Shown here in pieces: positions 17,985-26,287 of a DNA stretch of 32,000 nucleotides (its first letter is position 1; each line of letters starts with the position of its first letter). The stretch is from positions 61,786 through 93,785 of the forward strand of contig JAKSVZ010000001.1 of the NCBI GenBank assembly GCA_024407725.1. The letters run 5' to 3'. The position numbers and the translations under genes are program-made. Origin of the DNA: Opitutales bacterium. Its GTDB lineage: Bacteria > Verrucomicrobiota > Verrucomicrobiia > Opitutales > UBA9783. The notes below the pieces were generated by a model. The model was not told where the DNA came from. It was given only the letters and a program-made list of their open reading frames with translations, and did no database searches.

Positions 17985-18974
17985 TTAGCAAGCTGTCACC
18001 AAATTATTCGCCACTTCACAGACCGAACAATTTTTGTAGAAAATTGCATATAAAGCATCTAAAATCGGGGCTTTTATAGAAGCTTTTTGCAACATAGAAG
18101 CTTTTTGCAACACATCATGGAAGTATAATAAGCTGCTATAGCCTTCTACGGTTCCTGATTGCAATAAATGCTCAATGGAATGGCCTTGGGCTATTTCAAA
18201 CCCTATTTGTCGGTTACGGCTCCAAGAACCCTGAGTGGTTGCGATTAAATCTCCTAAGCCGCTCAATCCATAAAACGTATCTTTTTTGCCGCCCAAATAA
18301 GTACCAATTTTGACCATTTCGGCCAAAGCAGACGCTAGATAGGCTGCTCGAGCATTATCGCCCAACTGCAAACCCTCAATAATGCCTGCGCCGATAGCGT
18401 AGCTATTTTTCAAGCAACCTCCAAGTTCGACCCCAATCCTATCTTCGGAAAAGGACACCTTTACAACGGAATTGCTGAAAAGAGGCGGTAAAAAGTTTAA
18501 CGTTTCATCGGCTCCTAAAACCATGGCAGCCGGTAATCCCTTAGCAAATTCCCGAGCATACGTAGGACCCGATAAACTTCCAATTAAAACTTGAGGTAAA
18601 AATGATTGAATTACCTGCGAAGGCAATTGGAGAGAGTCTTTACCCAAGCCTTTCATCAAAGAAATCACAGGAATTTTTGGCAAATGAATGCGTTGCAATT
18701 GAGCGCACAATTCCGCAAGTCCTTGGGTTGGACAAGCCAAGCACAGAATGGTTTCGGAGGTAATATGAACCGCAAAATCTGCATCGATCATTAACGATTC
18801 AGGTAAAGGAATGCCTGGCAAACGTTCGGTGTTTTCGTGCGCATCCCGTAAGGCTTTAGCTTTAGACTCATCGCGCGGGACCAATACAACATCATCATGC
18901 ATTTTTGCCAAATGAACCGCTACGGCTGTACCCCAAGCTCCTCCACCAATCACGACAAAATTGACTGCACTCAT
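17985..18974 (-). CDS. gpsA: NAD(P)H-dependent glycerol-3-phosphate dehydrogenase
   Basis: 329 aa. Rossmann start VIGGGAWGTAVA, plus the conserved blocks GCLKN and LSGLGDLIATT. Its ATG overlaps the fabI stop (ATGA). Confidence 0.9.
   Translation of the reverse strand: MSAVNFVVIGGGAWGTAVAVHLAKMHDDVVLVPRDESKAKALRDAHENTERLPGIPLPESLMIDADFAVHITSETILCLACPTQGLAELCAQLQRIHLPKIPVISLMKGLGKDSLQLPSQVIQSFLPQVLIGSLSGPTYAREFAKGLPAAMVLGADETLNFLPPLFSNSVVKVSFSEDRIGVELGGCLKNSYAIGAGIIEGLQLGDNARAAYLASALAEMVKIGTYLGGKKDTFYGLSGLGDLIATTQGSWSRNRQIGFEIAQGHSIEHLLQSGTVEGYSSLLYFHDVLQKASMLQKASIKAPILDALYAIFYKNCSVCEVANNLVTAC
18077..18112 (-). repeat. perfect 18-bp in-frame tandem duplication inside gpsA
   Basis: tagaagctttttgcaaca occurs at 18077-18094 and again at 18095-18112. 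It encodes LQKASM-LQKASI near the C-terminus. Confidence 0.9.
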
Positions 18975-22550: not shown

Positions 22551-23576
22551 ATGACTATGCAAAAAATTACATTATCTGGAATCTTGTTCAGCCTGATTCC
22601 ACTACTGGCTTATGGGAATCCTTATGAGGTTAAACCTGATTGTAAAATACCCGTATTCACAACCAAAGACACGACTTTAGAATACGAAAAAAGCGCAAAG
22701 GGAACTGAATGCTCCGCTTTAGACGCAGTTTTGCTACCGGGAGAACAGATCAACATTTTAGATCTCGAAGCAAGACCTATCATCCCCGTTGAATATTTAC
22801 TAGGGAAACGCGTATTAAAAGGCTATATCCATCAAGATTTTCTGGAAAACGTCATTGATACTGAATCAAATAAGCCACTTCAACAACCGAAGGCAAAACC
22901 TTTGCCTCTAAAAGAATGTGACGCGATTTTGAAACGCTGCTTGGATGAACAAGTTCCGTATTGCTGGGGCGGAAACAACTTCGAAGCTATTCCCATGCCT
23001 GTTGATTATCAATTTACATCAAAAACATCTGAGGAAAACCCTGATGCCCTATTCGAACTCCGCGGATTTGATTGCTCCGGTATCTTGCACTACATCTCCA
23101 ATGGAACATTGCCTCACTGCACCAAGGATTTAAAAGACGCAGGTCAAATCGTACGCAAATTTGACTGCTCTAAGGTTTATCCCAAATGGCAACGGGAAGA
23201 ACGTTTGAGTAAACTCAAAAGCCTCGATTACATCCTTCTGTTAACTCCCAAAGGCGGTCATGTGTTAGTAGTGTACAATGGCGGGCTGTTTGAATTTAGA
23301 GACATCAAATCCGGCTGTACCTTCACCCCAGGAGCACGCGTCCTAGAACGTTTTAATGAATTGTTTGAGCAAGGGAAACAAGCAGGCAAGAGTGAAATTT
23401 ACTTCATTACTTGGCACTCAGAAGCCAAAACCCCTGAAGCTGCAGCCAAACCTCTTATGAAAGAGGAAAAGGCTAAAACGAGCTGGGATGGATCATTCAA
23501 AAAACCGAAACCTGTCTTTGGTAACAAAGAAAACAAAGAGGTAAAAGAAAATAAAGAAAGCAAAGATAACAAATAA
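22551..23576 (+). CDS. secreted NlpC/P60-family cysteine peptidase with Lys/Glu/Asn-rich tail
   Basis: Signal peptide (ITLSGILFSLIPLLAYG). Catalytic Cys context FDCSGILHYI, downstream GHVLVV His, and a low-complexity C-terminus KENKEVKENKESKDNK. Confidence 0.8.
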   Translation: MTMQKITLSGILFSLIPLLAYGNPYEVKPDCKIPVFTTKDTTLEYEKSAKGTECSALDAVLLPGEQINILDLEARPIIPVEYLLGKRVLKGYIHQDFLENVIDTESNKPLQQPKAKPLPLKECDAILKRCLDEQVPYCWGGNNFEAIPMPVDYQFTSKTSEENPDALFELRGFDCSGILHYISNGTLPHCTKDLKDAGQIVRKFDCSKVYPKWQREERLSKLKSLDYILLLTPKGGHVLVVYNGGLFEFRDIKSGCTFTPGARVLERFNELFEQGKQAGKSEIYFITWHSEAKTPEAAAKPLMKEEKAKTSWDGSFKKPKPVFGNKENKEVKENKESKDNK

Positions 23577-23614: not shown

Positions 23615-24109
23615 TTAACGTTCGCCAGCAATGCGATCCAGTTCCAGCATCGCTTCTAAGCTTCCCTTGGTAGCAATGCGATGAGCAGAATCCATATAGT
23701 GGCTGCATTGCTCTTCTTCTTCAACTTGCTCCGTAATAAACCACTGGAGGCAAACCTGCGTTGGGTAATCATGCTTTTTTACCGCCAATTCATACGCTCG
23801 GTGAATATTTTTCGTGTTTTTAACCTCCAAATCATAAGCAATCTTAAAAGCTTCGCATGGGCATTTTAGGGTGAAATTTTTAACCTTAAAATCCTGCAAT
23901 TTAACAACACCCTGACGCGATTGAATATAATCAATCAACCGATCCGCATGCTCTAATTCCTCGCGGTATTGCTTCCGCATCCAATGCGCAAAACCATCAA
24001 AATTTAGCGCGTTTAAGGCTGAATATAACCCTAAATACGCATAAGCCGACTCGAACTCATGGCGTACCTGCTCGTTTAGAATCAATTCTATATCCGTTTC
24101 AATCTTCAT
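23615..24109 (-). CDS. ftn: non-heme ferritin
   Basis: 164 aa. Ferroxidase-centre pattern EFESAYAYLGL...YREELEHADRLIDYI...QVEEE. Confidence 0.9.
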   Translation of the reverse strand: MKIETDIELILNEQVRHEFESAYAYLGLYSALNALNFDGFAHWMRKQYREELEHADRLIDYIQSRQGVVKLQDFKVKNFTLKCPCEAFKIAYDLEVKNTKNIHRAYELAVKKHDYPTQVCLQWFITEQVEEEEQCSHYMDSAHRIATKGSLEAMLELDRIAGER

Positions 24110-24146: not shown

Positions 24147-24240
24147 CCAACCGCCAACAACCAAAATCCATCGAACGTATCGCCTTAATGGAAGCATGCT
24201 AACCTCATCCTTTTAGCGCTAGAAGCGGCGTAGCTTCTAT

Positions 24241-24257
24241 CCCCCCCCCAAAAAAAA
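24241..24257. repeat. homopolymer pair C9 then A8
   Basis: ccccccccc (24241-24249) is followed directly by aaaaaaaa (24250-24257). It lies in the divergent ferritin/OMP intergenic region, 3 nt before a TTGCAA hexamer. Confidence 0.95.
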
Positions 24258-24286
24258 GCTTGCAATTTTCAAAAAACGCCCAAAAT

Positions 24287-24343
24287 CTTATAAGGAAACG
24301 CCTTATAAGGAAACGCCTTATAAGGAAACGCCTTATAAGGAAA
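24287..24343 (+). repeat. 15-bp tandem repeat x3.8 (cttataaggaaacgc), each unit carrying the 10-bp palindrome CCTTATAAGG
   Basis: Copies at 24287-24301, 24302-24316 and 24317-24331, plus a partial copy at 24332-24343 that ends at the first base of the OMP start codon (24343-24345). The last unit supplies the only SD-like AAGGA. Confidence 0.95.
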
Positions 24344-25200
24344 TGACTAAAAGAGTAAGTCTATTAATAGCCCTAAGTATTGCTTTGGGAATACACACCC
24401 CCTGTTATGGTTTGTACGTCATGGTACGTAGTGGTTTTGGAGAGTTGAAGGGGGAAAATCTAGGCGCATTCACAAGAGGAGCAACCCAAGCTCCCACTGT
24501 CATGGGTATTACTCACTATCGTGTTTTTCGTAATAACAACCGATGCGGATCCGAGGGCTTCAAATACAAAGATCACAAAAACTTATCGGTGGCTTTAGGT
24601 GGACGCTTTGATGTGTTTGACATCGGAGCATTAGGGTTAGAAGTAGAAATCCTAGGGGCTTATGCCAATTTTGATCGCAAAAACAGAAAGAAAATTAATT
24701 ATATGAATTGGGATGGATTAGCTAGTCCTGATCTTATAACAGTCGCAATGCGTAATTTGGATCCTAACCCCCGACTTCATACAGGTTTATTTAGATTAAT
24801 GTACCTTAAAAATCAACGTATTGCCGGAGCGCAGGTCAATATCTATTGGGAACACTATATCTTAGATTGGTTATCCGCTGGGATCGGTGTCGGTATTGGT
24901 GGCGCTTATGTCTGTACCAAATTTACTACGCTGGAATGGTTTTCGCGATATAATAGAGCAGCTGGTTGGCTCCCTTATACTAGTCTTAGCAACCGCCGTA
25001 AGTATGTCCATTCCGGCTCGTTACTATACAACTTTAGCCTGTTTGTACGTGCAGAGAAGTTTGAAACGCTATTTGAGGTTGGTTATCGCCATATCGGATT
25101 ACACCAGATGTTTGGTGCTAAATGTTATGGGTATGAAATTCCGAAGCTCGCTAATCTCCATTCCGACCAAATCTATTTGGGTGTAGGAAGAACGTTCTAA
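24343..25200 (+). CDS. outer-membrane beta-barrel protein (family unassigned)
   Basis: Signal peptide MTKRVSLLIALSIALGIHTPCYG. Alternating amphipathic strands, Gly/aromatic-rich. The C-terminus ends in Phe (YLGVGRTF), typical of BAM substrates. Confidence 0.65.
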   Translation: MTKRVSLLIALSIALGIHTPCYGLYVMVRSGFGELKGENLGAFTRGATQAPTVMGITHYRVFRNNNRCGSEGFKYKDHKNLSVALGGRFDVFDIGALGLEVEILGAYANFDRKNRKKINYMNWDGLASPDLITVAMRNLDPNPRLHTGLFRLMYLKNQRIAGAQVNIYWEHYILDWLSAGIGVGIGGAYVCTKFTTLEWFSRYNRAAGWLPYTSLSNRRKYVHSGSLLYNFSLFVRAEKFETLFEVGYRHIGLHQMFGAKCYGYEIPKLANLHSDQIYLGVGRTF

Positions 25201-25312: not shown

Positions 25313-25389
25313 CGGGTCATGGCGTAGTCTGGTAGCGCGCTTGCATGGGGTGCAAGAAGTCGCGAGTTCGAATCTCGCTGACCCGACCA
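25313..25389 (+). tRNA. tRNA-Pro (anticodon GGG), CCA encoded
   Basis: Hand-folded cloverleaf. Acceptor CGGGTCA/TGACCCG, D-arm GCGT/GCGC, anticodon stem CTTGC/GCAAG with loop AT-GGG-GT (G37), T-arm GCGAG-TTCGAAT-CTCGC, then ACCA followed by T6. Confidence 0.9.
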
Positions 25390-25507: not shown

Positions 25508-26287
25508 ATGGTGTTACCCAAATCCCCATTGTCCTCAAAACAACCGCTGTCGGAACCATCCAATGACATACAGCGCCCCAACTGGGAACTGGTGAAACTC
25601 TACCTGCCCCTAGTAAAATCGATTACTAAAAAAACATTGGCGCACTTTCCGGATTCAATCGATCGGGAAAGTATCCATACCATTGGGCTGCTCGGATTAA
25701 TTTCCGCCAGCAAAAGTTATAATGCCCGCAAAGATGCACGATTTGGCGCGTATGCCGCCATTCGTATCCGTGGAGCGCTTCTAGACGAACTGCGTCGTCT
25801 TGATTGGCTTCCAAGGCATTTGCGGCAAAAAATCACTCGCTACAATAAAACGTTAAAGCATTGGGAACAGACGCTCGGTCGTCCCTTATCTGACGATGAA
25901 GCCTGTAATTACCTGCATTTAACCAAAAAACAGCTTAATCAGGTTAAACAATATTTAAAACCGTACGTATTTATATCAATAGATCAGCCGTGTGATTGGG
26001 ATCGGGAGAACTCATCCTTATTGATCGCCAATCAACTAGCCGATCACAACCAACAAACTGGTATCGACGCGTATGAACAAAAAGAATTGTACGAACTGCT
26101 TCATCACGAAGTGAATCAACTCCCCGAAAAGATGCAGCATATGTTCCAACTTCATTATCAACAAGGTATCCATTGGTCGCAAATCGCTACCCTATTTCAA
26201 TTGAGCAAATCCCGCATTTGTCAGATGCACACCTTGATGATCCAAAGGATACGCAAAAACCTAATGAAACACCTTTCTAATAACTAA
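25508..26287 (+). CDS. fliA: RNA polymerase sigma-28 factor (FliA/WhiG family; RpsD equivalent in chlamydiae)
   Basis: 259 aa. Region 2 FGAYAAIRIRGALLDELRRLDWLPR is characteristic of FliA. Region 4.2 HTH is WSQIATLFQLSKSRICQMHTLMIQRIRKNL. Confidence 0.85.
   Translation: MVLPKSPLSSKQPLSEPSNDIQRPNWELVKLYLPLVKSITKKTLAHFPDSIDRESIHTIGLLGLISASKSYNARKDARFGAYAAIRIRGALLDELRRLDWLPRHLRQKITRYNKTLKHWEQTLGRPLSDDEACNYLHLTKKQLNQVKQYLKPYVFISIDQPCDWDRENSSLLIANQLADHNQQTGIDAYEQKELYELLHHEVNQLPEKMQHMFQLHYQQGIHWSQIATLFQLSKSRICQMHTLMIQRIRKNLMKHLSNN

Follow-up and report, generated by a model that had tools for sequence, protein, structure and literature searches.

A leader made of homopolymeric tracts and a palindromic tandem array precedes the gene of a predicted outer-membrane protein (OMP) in a 32,000-nucleotide stretch of contig JAKSVZ010000001.1 of an Opitutales bacterium (positions 61,786 to 93,785; the whole stretch is referred to here as the window). 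The same leader was found at 14 paralogous or orthologous loci with differing neighborhoods in rumen and gut metagenomes (at least five assemblies), and its C/A tracts and the number of its repeat units change fast, both between paralogs and between the orthologs of closely related strains. A repeat tract placed directly upstream of a predicted surface-protein gene, within a multicopy family with hypervariable loops, is the setting typical of phase and antigenic variation. The explanation that we favor, and consider probable, is that these leaders act as contingency loci in which repeat slippage tunes the expression of each OMP paralog; the cassette would probably let the expression of each copy drift up, down, or off.

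The window leader (24220-24342) had been described in a first-pass annotation as a hairpin, C9, A8, a TTGCAA hexamer, and a palindromic array ending at an ATG, and every one of these elements was found where it had been placed. Together with the adjacent features they are as follows.

24166-24202, plus strand: relic of a ymdB-like 3' end, stop codon included (atccatcgaacgtatcgccttaatggaagcatgctaa), matching the end of the intact YmdB gene in loci L013, L014, and L018
24220-24239, plus strand: hairpin TAGAAGC-N6-GCTTCTA (7-bp stem and 6-nt loop, ggcgta), an optional part of the upstream cassette
24241-24249, plus strand: poly-C tract (C9), hypervariable among leaders
24250-24257, plus strand: poly-A tract (A8), ending two bases before the -35-like hexamer
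24258-24265, plus strand: conserved block (AA)GCTTGCAA, which holds the -35-like TTGCAA at 24260-24265
24266-24286, plus strand: semiconserved 21-nt spacer, ending in a weak -10-like CAAAAT at 24281-24286
24287-24342, plus strand: tandem array of the 15-bp unit CTTATAAGGAAACGC, abutting the ATG at 24343
24343-25200, plus strand: OMP family gene (285 amino acids) with a signal peptide, a predicted 8-stranded barrel, and a C-terminal ...GRTF

Three full units start at 24287, 24302, and 24317 and are followed by an 11-nt partial unit (24332-24342); Tandem Repeats Finder delimited the array as 24287-24343, with a period of 15, 3.8 copies, 100% matches, and a score of 114. There is one 10-bp palindrome per 15 bp (24286-24295, 24301-24310, 24316-24325, and 24331-24340), which reads TCTTATAAGG in the first unit (at 24286) and CCTTATAAGG at 24301, 24316, and 24331. 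Allowing at most one mismatch, six matches to the palindrome were found in the window, with 0.93 expected, and none of 100 shuffles reached this number. Along similar lines, C/G runs of 8 nt or more were confined to the leaders of this family in ca. 240 kb of sequence (the window plus the related loci), so that the tracts are not the product of chance. AAGGA had been thought to be unique to the last copy of the array; it occurs in every unit, and the last one is merely adjacent to the ATG.

For every family gene in the related loci examined, the sequence upstream was extracted, and the 13 leaders with readable promoter sequence were aligned; in the 14th (L004), a contig end leaves just the last two units. 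Their common form was AAGCTTGCAA-spacer-CTTATAAGGAAA...ATG, and the complete cassette can be written as C tract-A tract-GCTTGCAA-spacer-(CTTATAAGGAAAnnn)n-ATG, with a semiconserved spacer of 19 to 21 nt between the conserved blocks. AAGCTTG.AA was invariant in the 13 leaders, one of which has lost the C, and TTGCAA is present in 12 of the 13; TTATAAGGAAA was also invariant in the alignment. Upstream of the C/A tract there is often nothing conserved, and in L009, for instance, the tract starts right after the tsf stop codon. Partly compensated homologs of the hairpin at 24220-24239 are present in L002, L013, L014, and L018:1345, and a hairpin of this type is missing from L003, L009, L011, L015, L016, and L018:10001. 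The tracts, unit numbers, and gene neighborhoods of the leaders were as follows.

Window: C9A8, 4 units
L002: C9A8, 4 units
L003 (tsf>OMP): C6A8, 1 unit
L009 = L010 (tsf>OMP): C7A7, 6 units
L008: tract cut by contig end, 5 units
L011 (TLC>OMP): C5GA6, 3 units
L013 (ymdB>OMP): C9ACA6, 1 unit
L014 (ymdB>OMP): C5ACA6, 1 unit
L018:1345 (ymdB>OMP): C8A7, 1 unit
L015 (lpxI<>OMP): A6, no C tract, 7 units
L016 = L017 (mgsA<>OMP): A5, no C tract, 3 units
L018:10001 (ffh<>OMP): A5, no C tract, 3 units
L009:18775 (ffh<>OMP): A5, no C tract, 6 units
L004: tract cut by contig end, at least 2 units

The cassette is upstream of most of the family members examined, and it belongs to the downstream OMP gene and not to the ferritin/OMP intergenic region in which it was first described. 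Among the family loci compared, ferritin adjoins the OMP gene in the window alone. An operator array shared by the two divergent genes, as initially suggested, is excluded, given that the cassette follows the OMP gene beside tsf, ymdB, TLC, lpxI, mgsA, and ffh and that the ymdB relic lies between ferritin and the cassette in the window. In L013, L014, and L018, the sequence of this relic is directly upstream of the OMP leaders. As the relic at 24166-24202 shows, the window locus descends from a ymdB>OMP>tRNA-Pro>sigma arrangement that is still present in L018.

The CCTTATAAGG palindromes could also be an operator array bound by a dimeric regulator dedicated to the family, with the number of units setting the strength of repression or activation. 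The palindromes are perfect over 10 bp, all 13 leaders have an invariant TTATAAGG but differ in the 5-nt spacers that separate the units (CGC, CAC, AGC, and CAAC), and the last site overlaps the start codon, as would suit a roadblock. However, the 15-bp spacing places neighboring sites on opposite faces of the helix, the number of sites is not conserved (1 to 7), and the single-unit leaders L013 and L014 carry a broken palindrome (CTTTATAAGG). Outside the OMP leaders, the palindrome occurs only once in the 240 kb, inside dnaK, and no regulator gene is consistently linked to the family, the FliA-type sigma gene adjoining only some of the loci. The link with ferritin is lineage specific, which excludes an operator common to both genes. 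We consider a dedicated operator distinctly unlikely.

Across the leaders, the array ranges from 1 to 7 units, the C tract from 0 to 9 nt, and the A tract from 5 to 8 nt. Comparisons of orthologs showed that these numbers change quickly. The ffh<>OMP orthologs L009:18775 and L018:10001 have 6 and 3 units, respectively, with the 200 nt upstream nearly identical (a nearby T run is T6 in one and T7 in the other), a clean 45-bp change in place. Between the ymdB>OMP orthologs L013 and L014, the C tract is C9 versus C5, while the flanks are 99.0% identical with 0 indels in 2,940 bp; the OMP gene itself is only 88.9% identical, with 13 gap openings. In the tsf>OMP orthologs L003 and L009, with flanks 98.2% identical, there are 1 versus 6 units and the tracts are C6A8 versus C7A7. 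The arrays are internally homogeneous yet have private spacer variants (all CAC in L011 and all AGC in L016), which argues for expansion and contraction in place; the unit spacers of L002 are CGC, CAC, and CAC. Invariant lengths across strains were looked for and not found, in agreement with the hypervariability anticipated from the window alone.

The downstream gene family is previously undescribed, and no database recognizes its sequence: the 285-amino-acid protein had no family match in Pfam (E ≤ 0.01) or NCBIfam, and when the family profile was run against PDB sequences, there was no match at E ≤ 1. It has 61 relatives in public metagenomes and metagenome-assembled genomes (MAGs), and the family is multicopy, since one "Opitutales bacterium" MAG (locus tags MJ218_*) accounts for at least 14 of them. 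A scan of metagenome contigs with the family profile added one distant locus only. The family alignment shows a signal peptide, near-invariant blocks, the C-terminal ...GRTF, and three unalignable regions. An AlphaFold (AF2) model built with this alignment was confident and all beta, with eight long strands (pLDDT, 89.3; pTM, 0.80), and its significant fold matches in PDB were all outer-membrane barrels (OmpA, Ail, NspA, OpcA, OmpT/Pla, and Legionella porins), with modest TM scores (0.63 on the target for NspA and a low 0.3 to 0.4 on the query). Column conservation was 0.70 to 0.90 in the predicted strands, compared with 0.41, 0.35, 0.28, and 0.72 in loops L1, L2, L3, and L4. The model and the fold matches back the label of OMP that the gene had been given and support the prediction that the protein forms an outer-membrane barrel of eight strands, with three external loops that are hypervariable. 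The coding region diversifies in the three predicted surface loops, and the paralogs recombine.

Two diverged branches of the family lack the cassette. In a subfamily with 43% identity (L006, L007, and the minus strand of L015), the leader is of an ordinary kind, and AGGA precedes the ATG by 8 nt. In the diverged 320-amino-acid paralog of L019 (context tsf>OMP>MFS), which shares its contig with L013, the 15-bp units are replaced by (AAAATA)5.5 at L019:5969-6001, an independent repeat that abuts the ATG just as the units do elsewhere.

How could such a leader affect expression? A -10-like CA[ACG]AAT was found in 11 of the 13 leaders, 14 to 15 nt after TTGCAA (15 in the window); in L013 and L014 the -10-like hexamer fits only with a 1-nt shift. 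We tentatively assign TTGCAA/CA[ACG]AAT as the promoter, which would place an uncertain transcription start at ca. 24292, inside unit 1. The arrangement A8-GC-TTGCAA resembles in its position a proximal UP subsite (AAAAAARNR) followed by a -35 hexamer, and it may act as such. Under the contingency reading, the A tract and the -35-like TTGCAA would form an UP-like promoter element, and changes in the C/A tracts would modulate transcription by altering this element rather than the promoter spacing. The repeat units, downstream of the transcription start, would be transcribed into a 5' leader that folds into a long imperfect hairpin including the unit that abuts the AUG. The number of units would then set the occlusion of the start region, and it might also decide if a double-strand RNase can act on the leader. 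Slippage of the array, favored by hairpins between its self-complementary units, would reset the expression of each paralog individually, so that a population would express different subsets or levels of variable surface proteins, which would help against recognition by a host, predators, or phages.

Several other assignments within the leader were tried and rejected. TATAAG in the unit would be a -10 element 23 nt from TTGCAA and has no conserved final T, and no -35 was located 17 nt upstream of it within the array. A leaderless mRNA starting from the last unit is at odds with the gap of just 3 nt between TATAAG and the ATG. A sigma-28 promoter, prompted by the neighboring FliA-type gene, would require TAAG and GCCTTATAA to be spaced by 15 nt, and they are 5 or 20 nt apart. 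An intrinsic terminator is flagged by the scan on the minus strand, yet no transcription runs toward it, and the plus-strand hairpins have no U run. A leader peptide is unlikely because the reading frame that crosses the repeats (PYKET...), although open from 24223 on, has no ATG, GTG, or TTG before 24343. Lastly, AAGGA was discarded as a functional Shine-Dalgarno sequence, as it lies 1 to 2 nt from the ATG and most genes of the window have no such site.

The folding of the array differed between RNA and DNA. The first-pass annotation had proposed that pairing of units 1+2 and 3+4 would hide the Shine-Dalgarno-like AAGGA and that pairing of units 2+3 would free it. The 1+2/3+4 pairing is the predicted fold of single-stranded DNA, while the minimum-energy fold of the RNA is one nested hairpin (1:4 and 2:3). 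The predicted hairpin of the window leader RNA has -30.6 kcal/mol (z = -4.2), and the adjacent-unit DNA hairpins have -15 kcal/mol (z = -7.9); such DNA hairpins between adjacent units are a plausible cause of replication slippage. We folded model leaders with 1 to 8 units in silico, taking -8 to +3 as the start region, and the outcome depended wholly on where transcription starts. With all units transcribed, the probability of an unpaired start region was 0.18 for one unit and ca. 0 for two or more. With a start inside unit 1, it was 0.68 for one unit, ca. 0.3 for even numbers, and ca. 0 for odd numbers from three upwards. Unit number is therefore predicted to alter start-codon accessibility strongly under either start, and these models make an effect of the leader on expression at the RNA level plausible. 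A Shine-Dalgarno motif is missing from most window genes. Initiation here probably relies on a start region free of structure, and a hairpin over the start codon would then be more consequential.

The alternation seen with the start inside unit 1 would allow a particular kind of switch, in which the gain or loss of a unit frees or locks the unit abutting the AUG and toggles translation on and off, with no need of a frameshift or of a change in promoter spacing. It appears in that model only, and we regard such a parity switch as quite unlikely. The unit numbers observed, nine odd and four even, were uninformative about any preference. The suggestion that the leader acts as a thermosensor found no support. 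In an RNA thermometer the start-codon hairpin would melt with temperature, and the start region is indeed predicted to be paired. Known RNA thermometers are far less stable than a hairpin of -30 kcal/mol. The window leader, with -30.6 kcal/mol and perfect 10-bp helices, is far above them, the rumen or gut habitat is thermally constant, and the single-unit leaders form no hairpin. Rfam gave only chance-level matches on the leader (E of ca. 0.1 to 0.2, far below the gathering scores). An RNA thermometer is hardly credible.

A number of observations weigh against slippage-driven tuning as we have described it. The polymorphism was read from consensus assemblies of different strains, whose flanks differ by 1 to 2%. 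Of the slipped-strand phase variation originally proposed, these comparisons bear out slippage-type hypervariability in a multicopy surface family, seen as changes between strains; phase variation in the strict sense would be a step beyond this. Some differences between orthologs may come from the replacement of whole cassettes by paralog recombination and not from slippage; L003 versus L009, in which the middle of the OMP gene is unalignable, is an example of possible replacement. The L009/L010 and L016/L017 leaders are identical between assemblies, though each pair may go back to one set of reads. Some leaders have a single unit, which means that expression does not require the repeats, and the absence of the C tract in L015, L016 = L017, L018:10001, and L009:18775 makes this tract dispensable. 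Besides, a scan of the plus strand with the sigma-70 consensus found no canonical site, and TTGCAA and the -10-like hexamer are just 15 nt apart, whereas sigma-70-type promoters have 16 to 18 nt between the two hexamers.

The array and the tracts could also be a neutral by-product, that is, a hairpin-prone sequence next to the start codon that expands and contracts and is copied by paralog recombination with no regulatory effect. The genes behind single-unit and tract-less leaders look intact, no parity or length class is favored among the 13 leaders, and the self-complementary unit alone accounts for the instability. On the other hand, arrays of up to 105 bp have been kept at most copies despite a compact genome (ca. 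1 Mb in what is likely the same family [PMC12306168]), and a different repeat has evolved at the same position in the diverged paralog L019, both of which argue for selection. Moreover, the predicted hairpin covers the start codon, and an effect on translation would be hard to avoid if the units are transcribed. We therefore judge a purely neutral origin unlikely, if not strongly so.

The leader could also be, in the main, a 5' homology arm: together with the conserved signal-peptide codons it would serve recombination and gene conversion between paralogs, a form of antigenic variation through the exchange of cassettes, the repeat number being incidental. From one paralog to another, the leaders and the first ca. 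110 nt of the coding sequence show high similarity, and the loop regions are unalignable. The OMP genes are at synteny breakpoints in all genomes compared (ymdB>OMP>sigma, ymdB>OMP<fmt, mgsA<>OMP<fmt, tsf>OMP>sigma, and tsf>OMP>MFS), which suggests that recombination between paralogs rearranges these small genomes and breaks MAG contigs. Relics of upstream genes appear to have been carried along, namely, the 3' end of ymdB in the window and, in L002, L013, and L018, one that resembles the 3' end of a tRNA. Such an arm would leave the homopolymers and the perfectly homogenized array unexplained, and as the main function we find it very unlikely. The leader surely also serves as recombination homology, a role that complements the contingency reading.

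Regarding these upstream segments, the sequence resembling a tRNA 3' end (ggttcgaatcc...ctccgcca) was located at L002:2840-2890, L013:9925-9942, and L018:1270-1290, where ARAGORN called no tRNA; possible origins are an ancestral position beside a tRNA and an integration site. In L015 (9780-9900) and L016 (9860-9950), ca. 70 nt upstream of the A tract are identical (ccttgcaagtagtattatccttgcatcctattttgtacctggcaactaaaaataactcat), which is further evidence that duplication or conversion reached past the core cassette. A scan of viral contigs for the two-unit pattern gave 0 matches.

The genes on either side of the OMP gene in the window are the following.

23615-24109, minus strand: ferritin (Pfam PF00210, 1.3e-31), the divergent neighbor, outside the system
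25313-25389, plus strand: tRNA-Pro(GGG), between the OMP gene and the sigma gene, a synteny marker
25508-26287, following tRNA-Pro: FliA/WhiG-type sigma factor gene (TIGR02479, 3.2e-54, just below the cutoff)

Ferritin has a promoter-like TTGCTA-17-TATACT on the minus strand (24146-24118) that ends 8 nt before its ATG, so that its mRNA would have almost no leader. L018 shares the order OMP>tRNA-Pro>sigma, and the longer block OMP>tRNA-Pro>sigma>546-amino-acid protein>207-amino-acid protein>LRR protein was seen again in L009 and L018; L016 has FliP. Three more tandem repeats of the window, all perfect or nearly so, are in or near annotated open reading frames: 18 bp × 2.1 at 18076-18112, just upstream of the start of a gpsA-like gene; 12 bp × 2.4 at 26450-26478, in a 549-amino-acid protein; and 9 bp × 5.7 at 23523-23573, encoding the K/E/N-rich tail of a 341-amino-acid protein.

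To put this family into perspective, a close counterpart in function is the Opa system of Neisseria. As here, it has about a dozen scattered paralogs, each a small 8-stranded barrel with three variable loops and one conserved loop (barrel and loops being predicted in our case), each copy has its own tandem repeat, and the paralogs recombine. Opa copies are switched independently, which in the Opitutales family we infer. However, no sequence relationship to Opa was detected with Pfam, NCBIfam, or PDB, and the phylum and the lifestyle differ. The Opa repeat is a CTCTT pentamer in the signal-peptide coding region that switches by frameshift, whereas the 15-bp unit is a multiple of 3 and lies upstream of the ATG, where a shift of frame is impossible. 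The family is therefore not Opa by homology, repeat position, or mechanism, while its predicted layout is Opa-like. If the parity switch were true, its combination with at least 14 independently switching, recombining paralogs would amount to Opa-like variation with a new switching principle, in a nonpathogenic gut verrucomicrobium of roughly 1 Mb.

The closest mechanistic precedent is hmw1A of Haemophilus influenzae, in which a 7-bp repeat is transcribed into a 5'-untranslated-region (5'-UTR) hairpin that is processed by RNase III and governs expression and even the dynamics of the repeat (PMC12721329). The hmw1A/hmw2A adhesin genes share with the window a tandem repeat between the promoter (tentative in our case) and the start codon of a surface-protein gene. 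The difference is that the hmw repeats pair with a separate G-rich arm and number at least 11 units (PMC12721329), whereas the palindromic units are predicted to pair with each other and number 1 to 7. Length-variable promoter homopolymers of surface-protein genes are found in Bordetella fim (poly-C), Neisseria meningitidis opc and porA, and Helicobacter pylori sabA (a poly-T rheostat [PMC4081817]). In these genes the tract separates -35 from -10 or an activator site from the core promoter, while the C(n)A(n) tract is upstream of the -35-like hexamer, so that any effect of it would be UP-element-like and not one of spacing. Moraxella uspA2, with AGAT repeats in its 5' UTR, is a case of a variable leader repeat with graded posttranscriptional control. 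The G-repeat leader of H. pylori tlpB, acting with the RepG small RNA (sRNA), also gives graded posttranscriptional control (PMC8295292). Both work through a trans-acting sRNA or through simple length effects, in contrast to the self-complementary unit described here. A palindromic 15-bp leader unit is unusual in itself, and it could act via unit-to-unit RNA pairing.

Repeat-driven variation of surface proteins is textbook knowledge for cultured pathogens (Neisseria, Haemophilus, Helicobacter, and Campylobacter). Here, the same logic would be at work in Verrucomicrobiota of the gut and rumen, uncultured bacteria whose genomes measure ca. 1 Mb, and nothing of the sort has been described previously for this lineage or protein family; literature searches on UBA3869 or on the palindrome found nothing relevant. 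The related contigs belong to "Verrucomicrobia bacterium UBA3869" and to rumen and gut assemblies such as PRJEB21624, and the gut Opitutales family UBA9783 has been reported in a 2025 paper to have genomes of <1 Mb with biosynthetic pathways missing (PMC12306168). Genes near the family loci include a TLC-type nucleotide transporter, PFOR, and PPDK. The TLC-family gene (ATP/ADP translocase type, L011:8319-9851) is directly upstream of one OMP paralog and hints at an energy-parasitic or host-cell-associated lifestyle of this reduced-genome Opitutales lineage. At least 14 genes, each typically with a mutable leader, would point to strong fluctuating selection on the cell surface, be it exerted by host cells, protists, phages, or immunity, and the OMP family may thus offer a handle on the lifestyle of a lineage that carries a transporter of the ATP/ADP translocase type.

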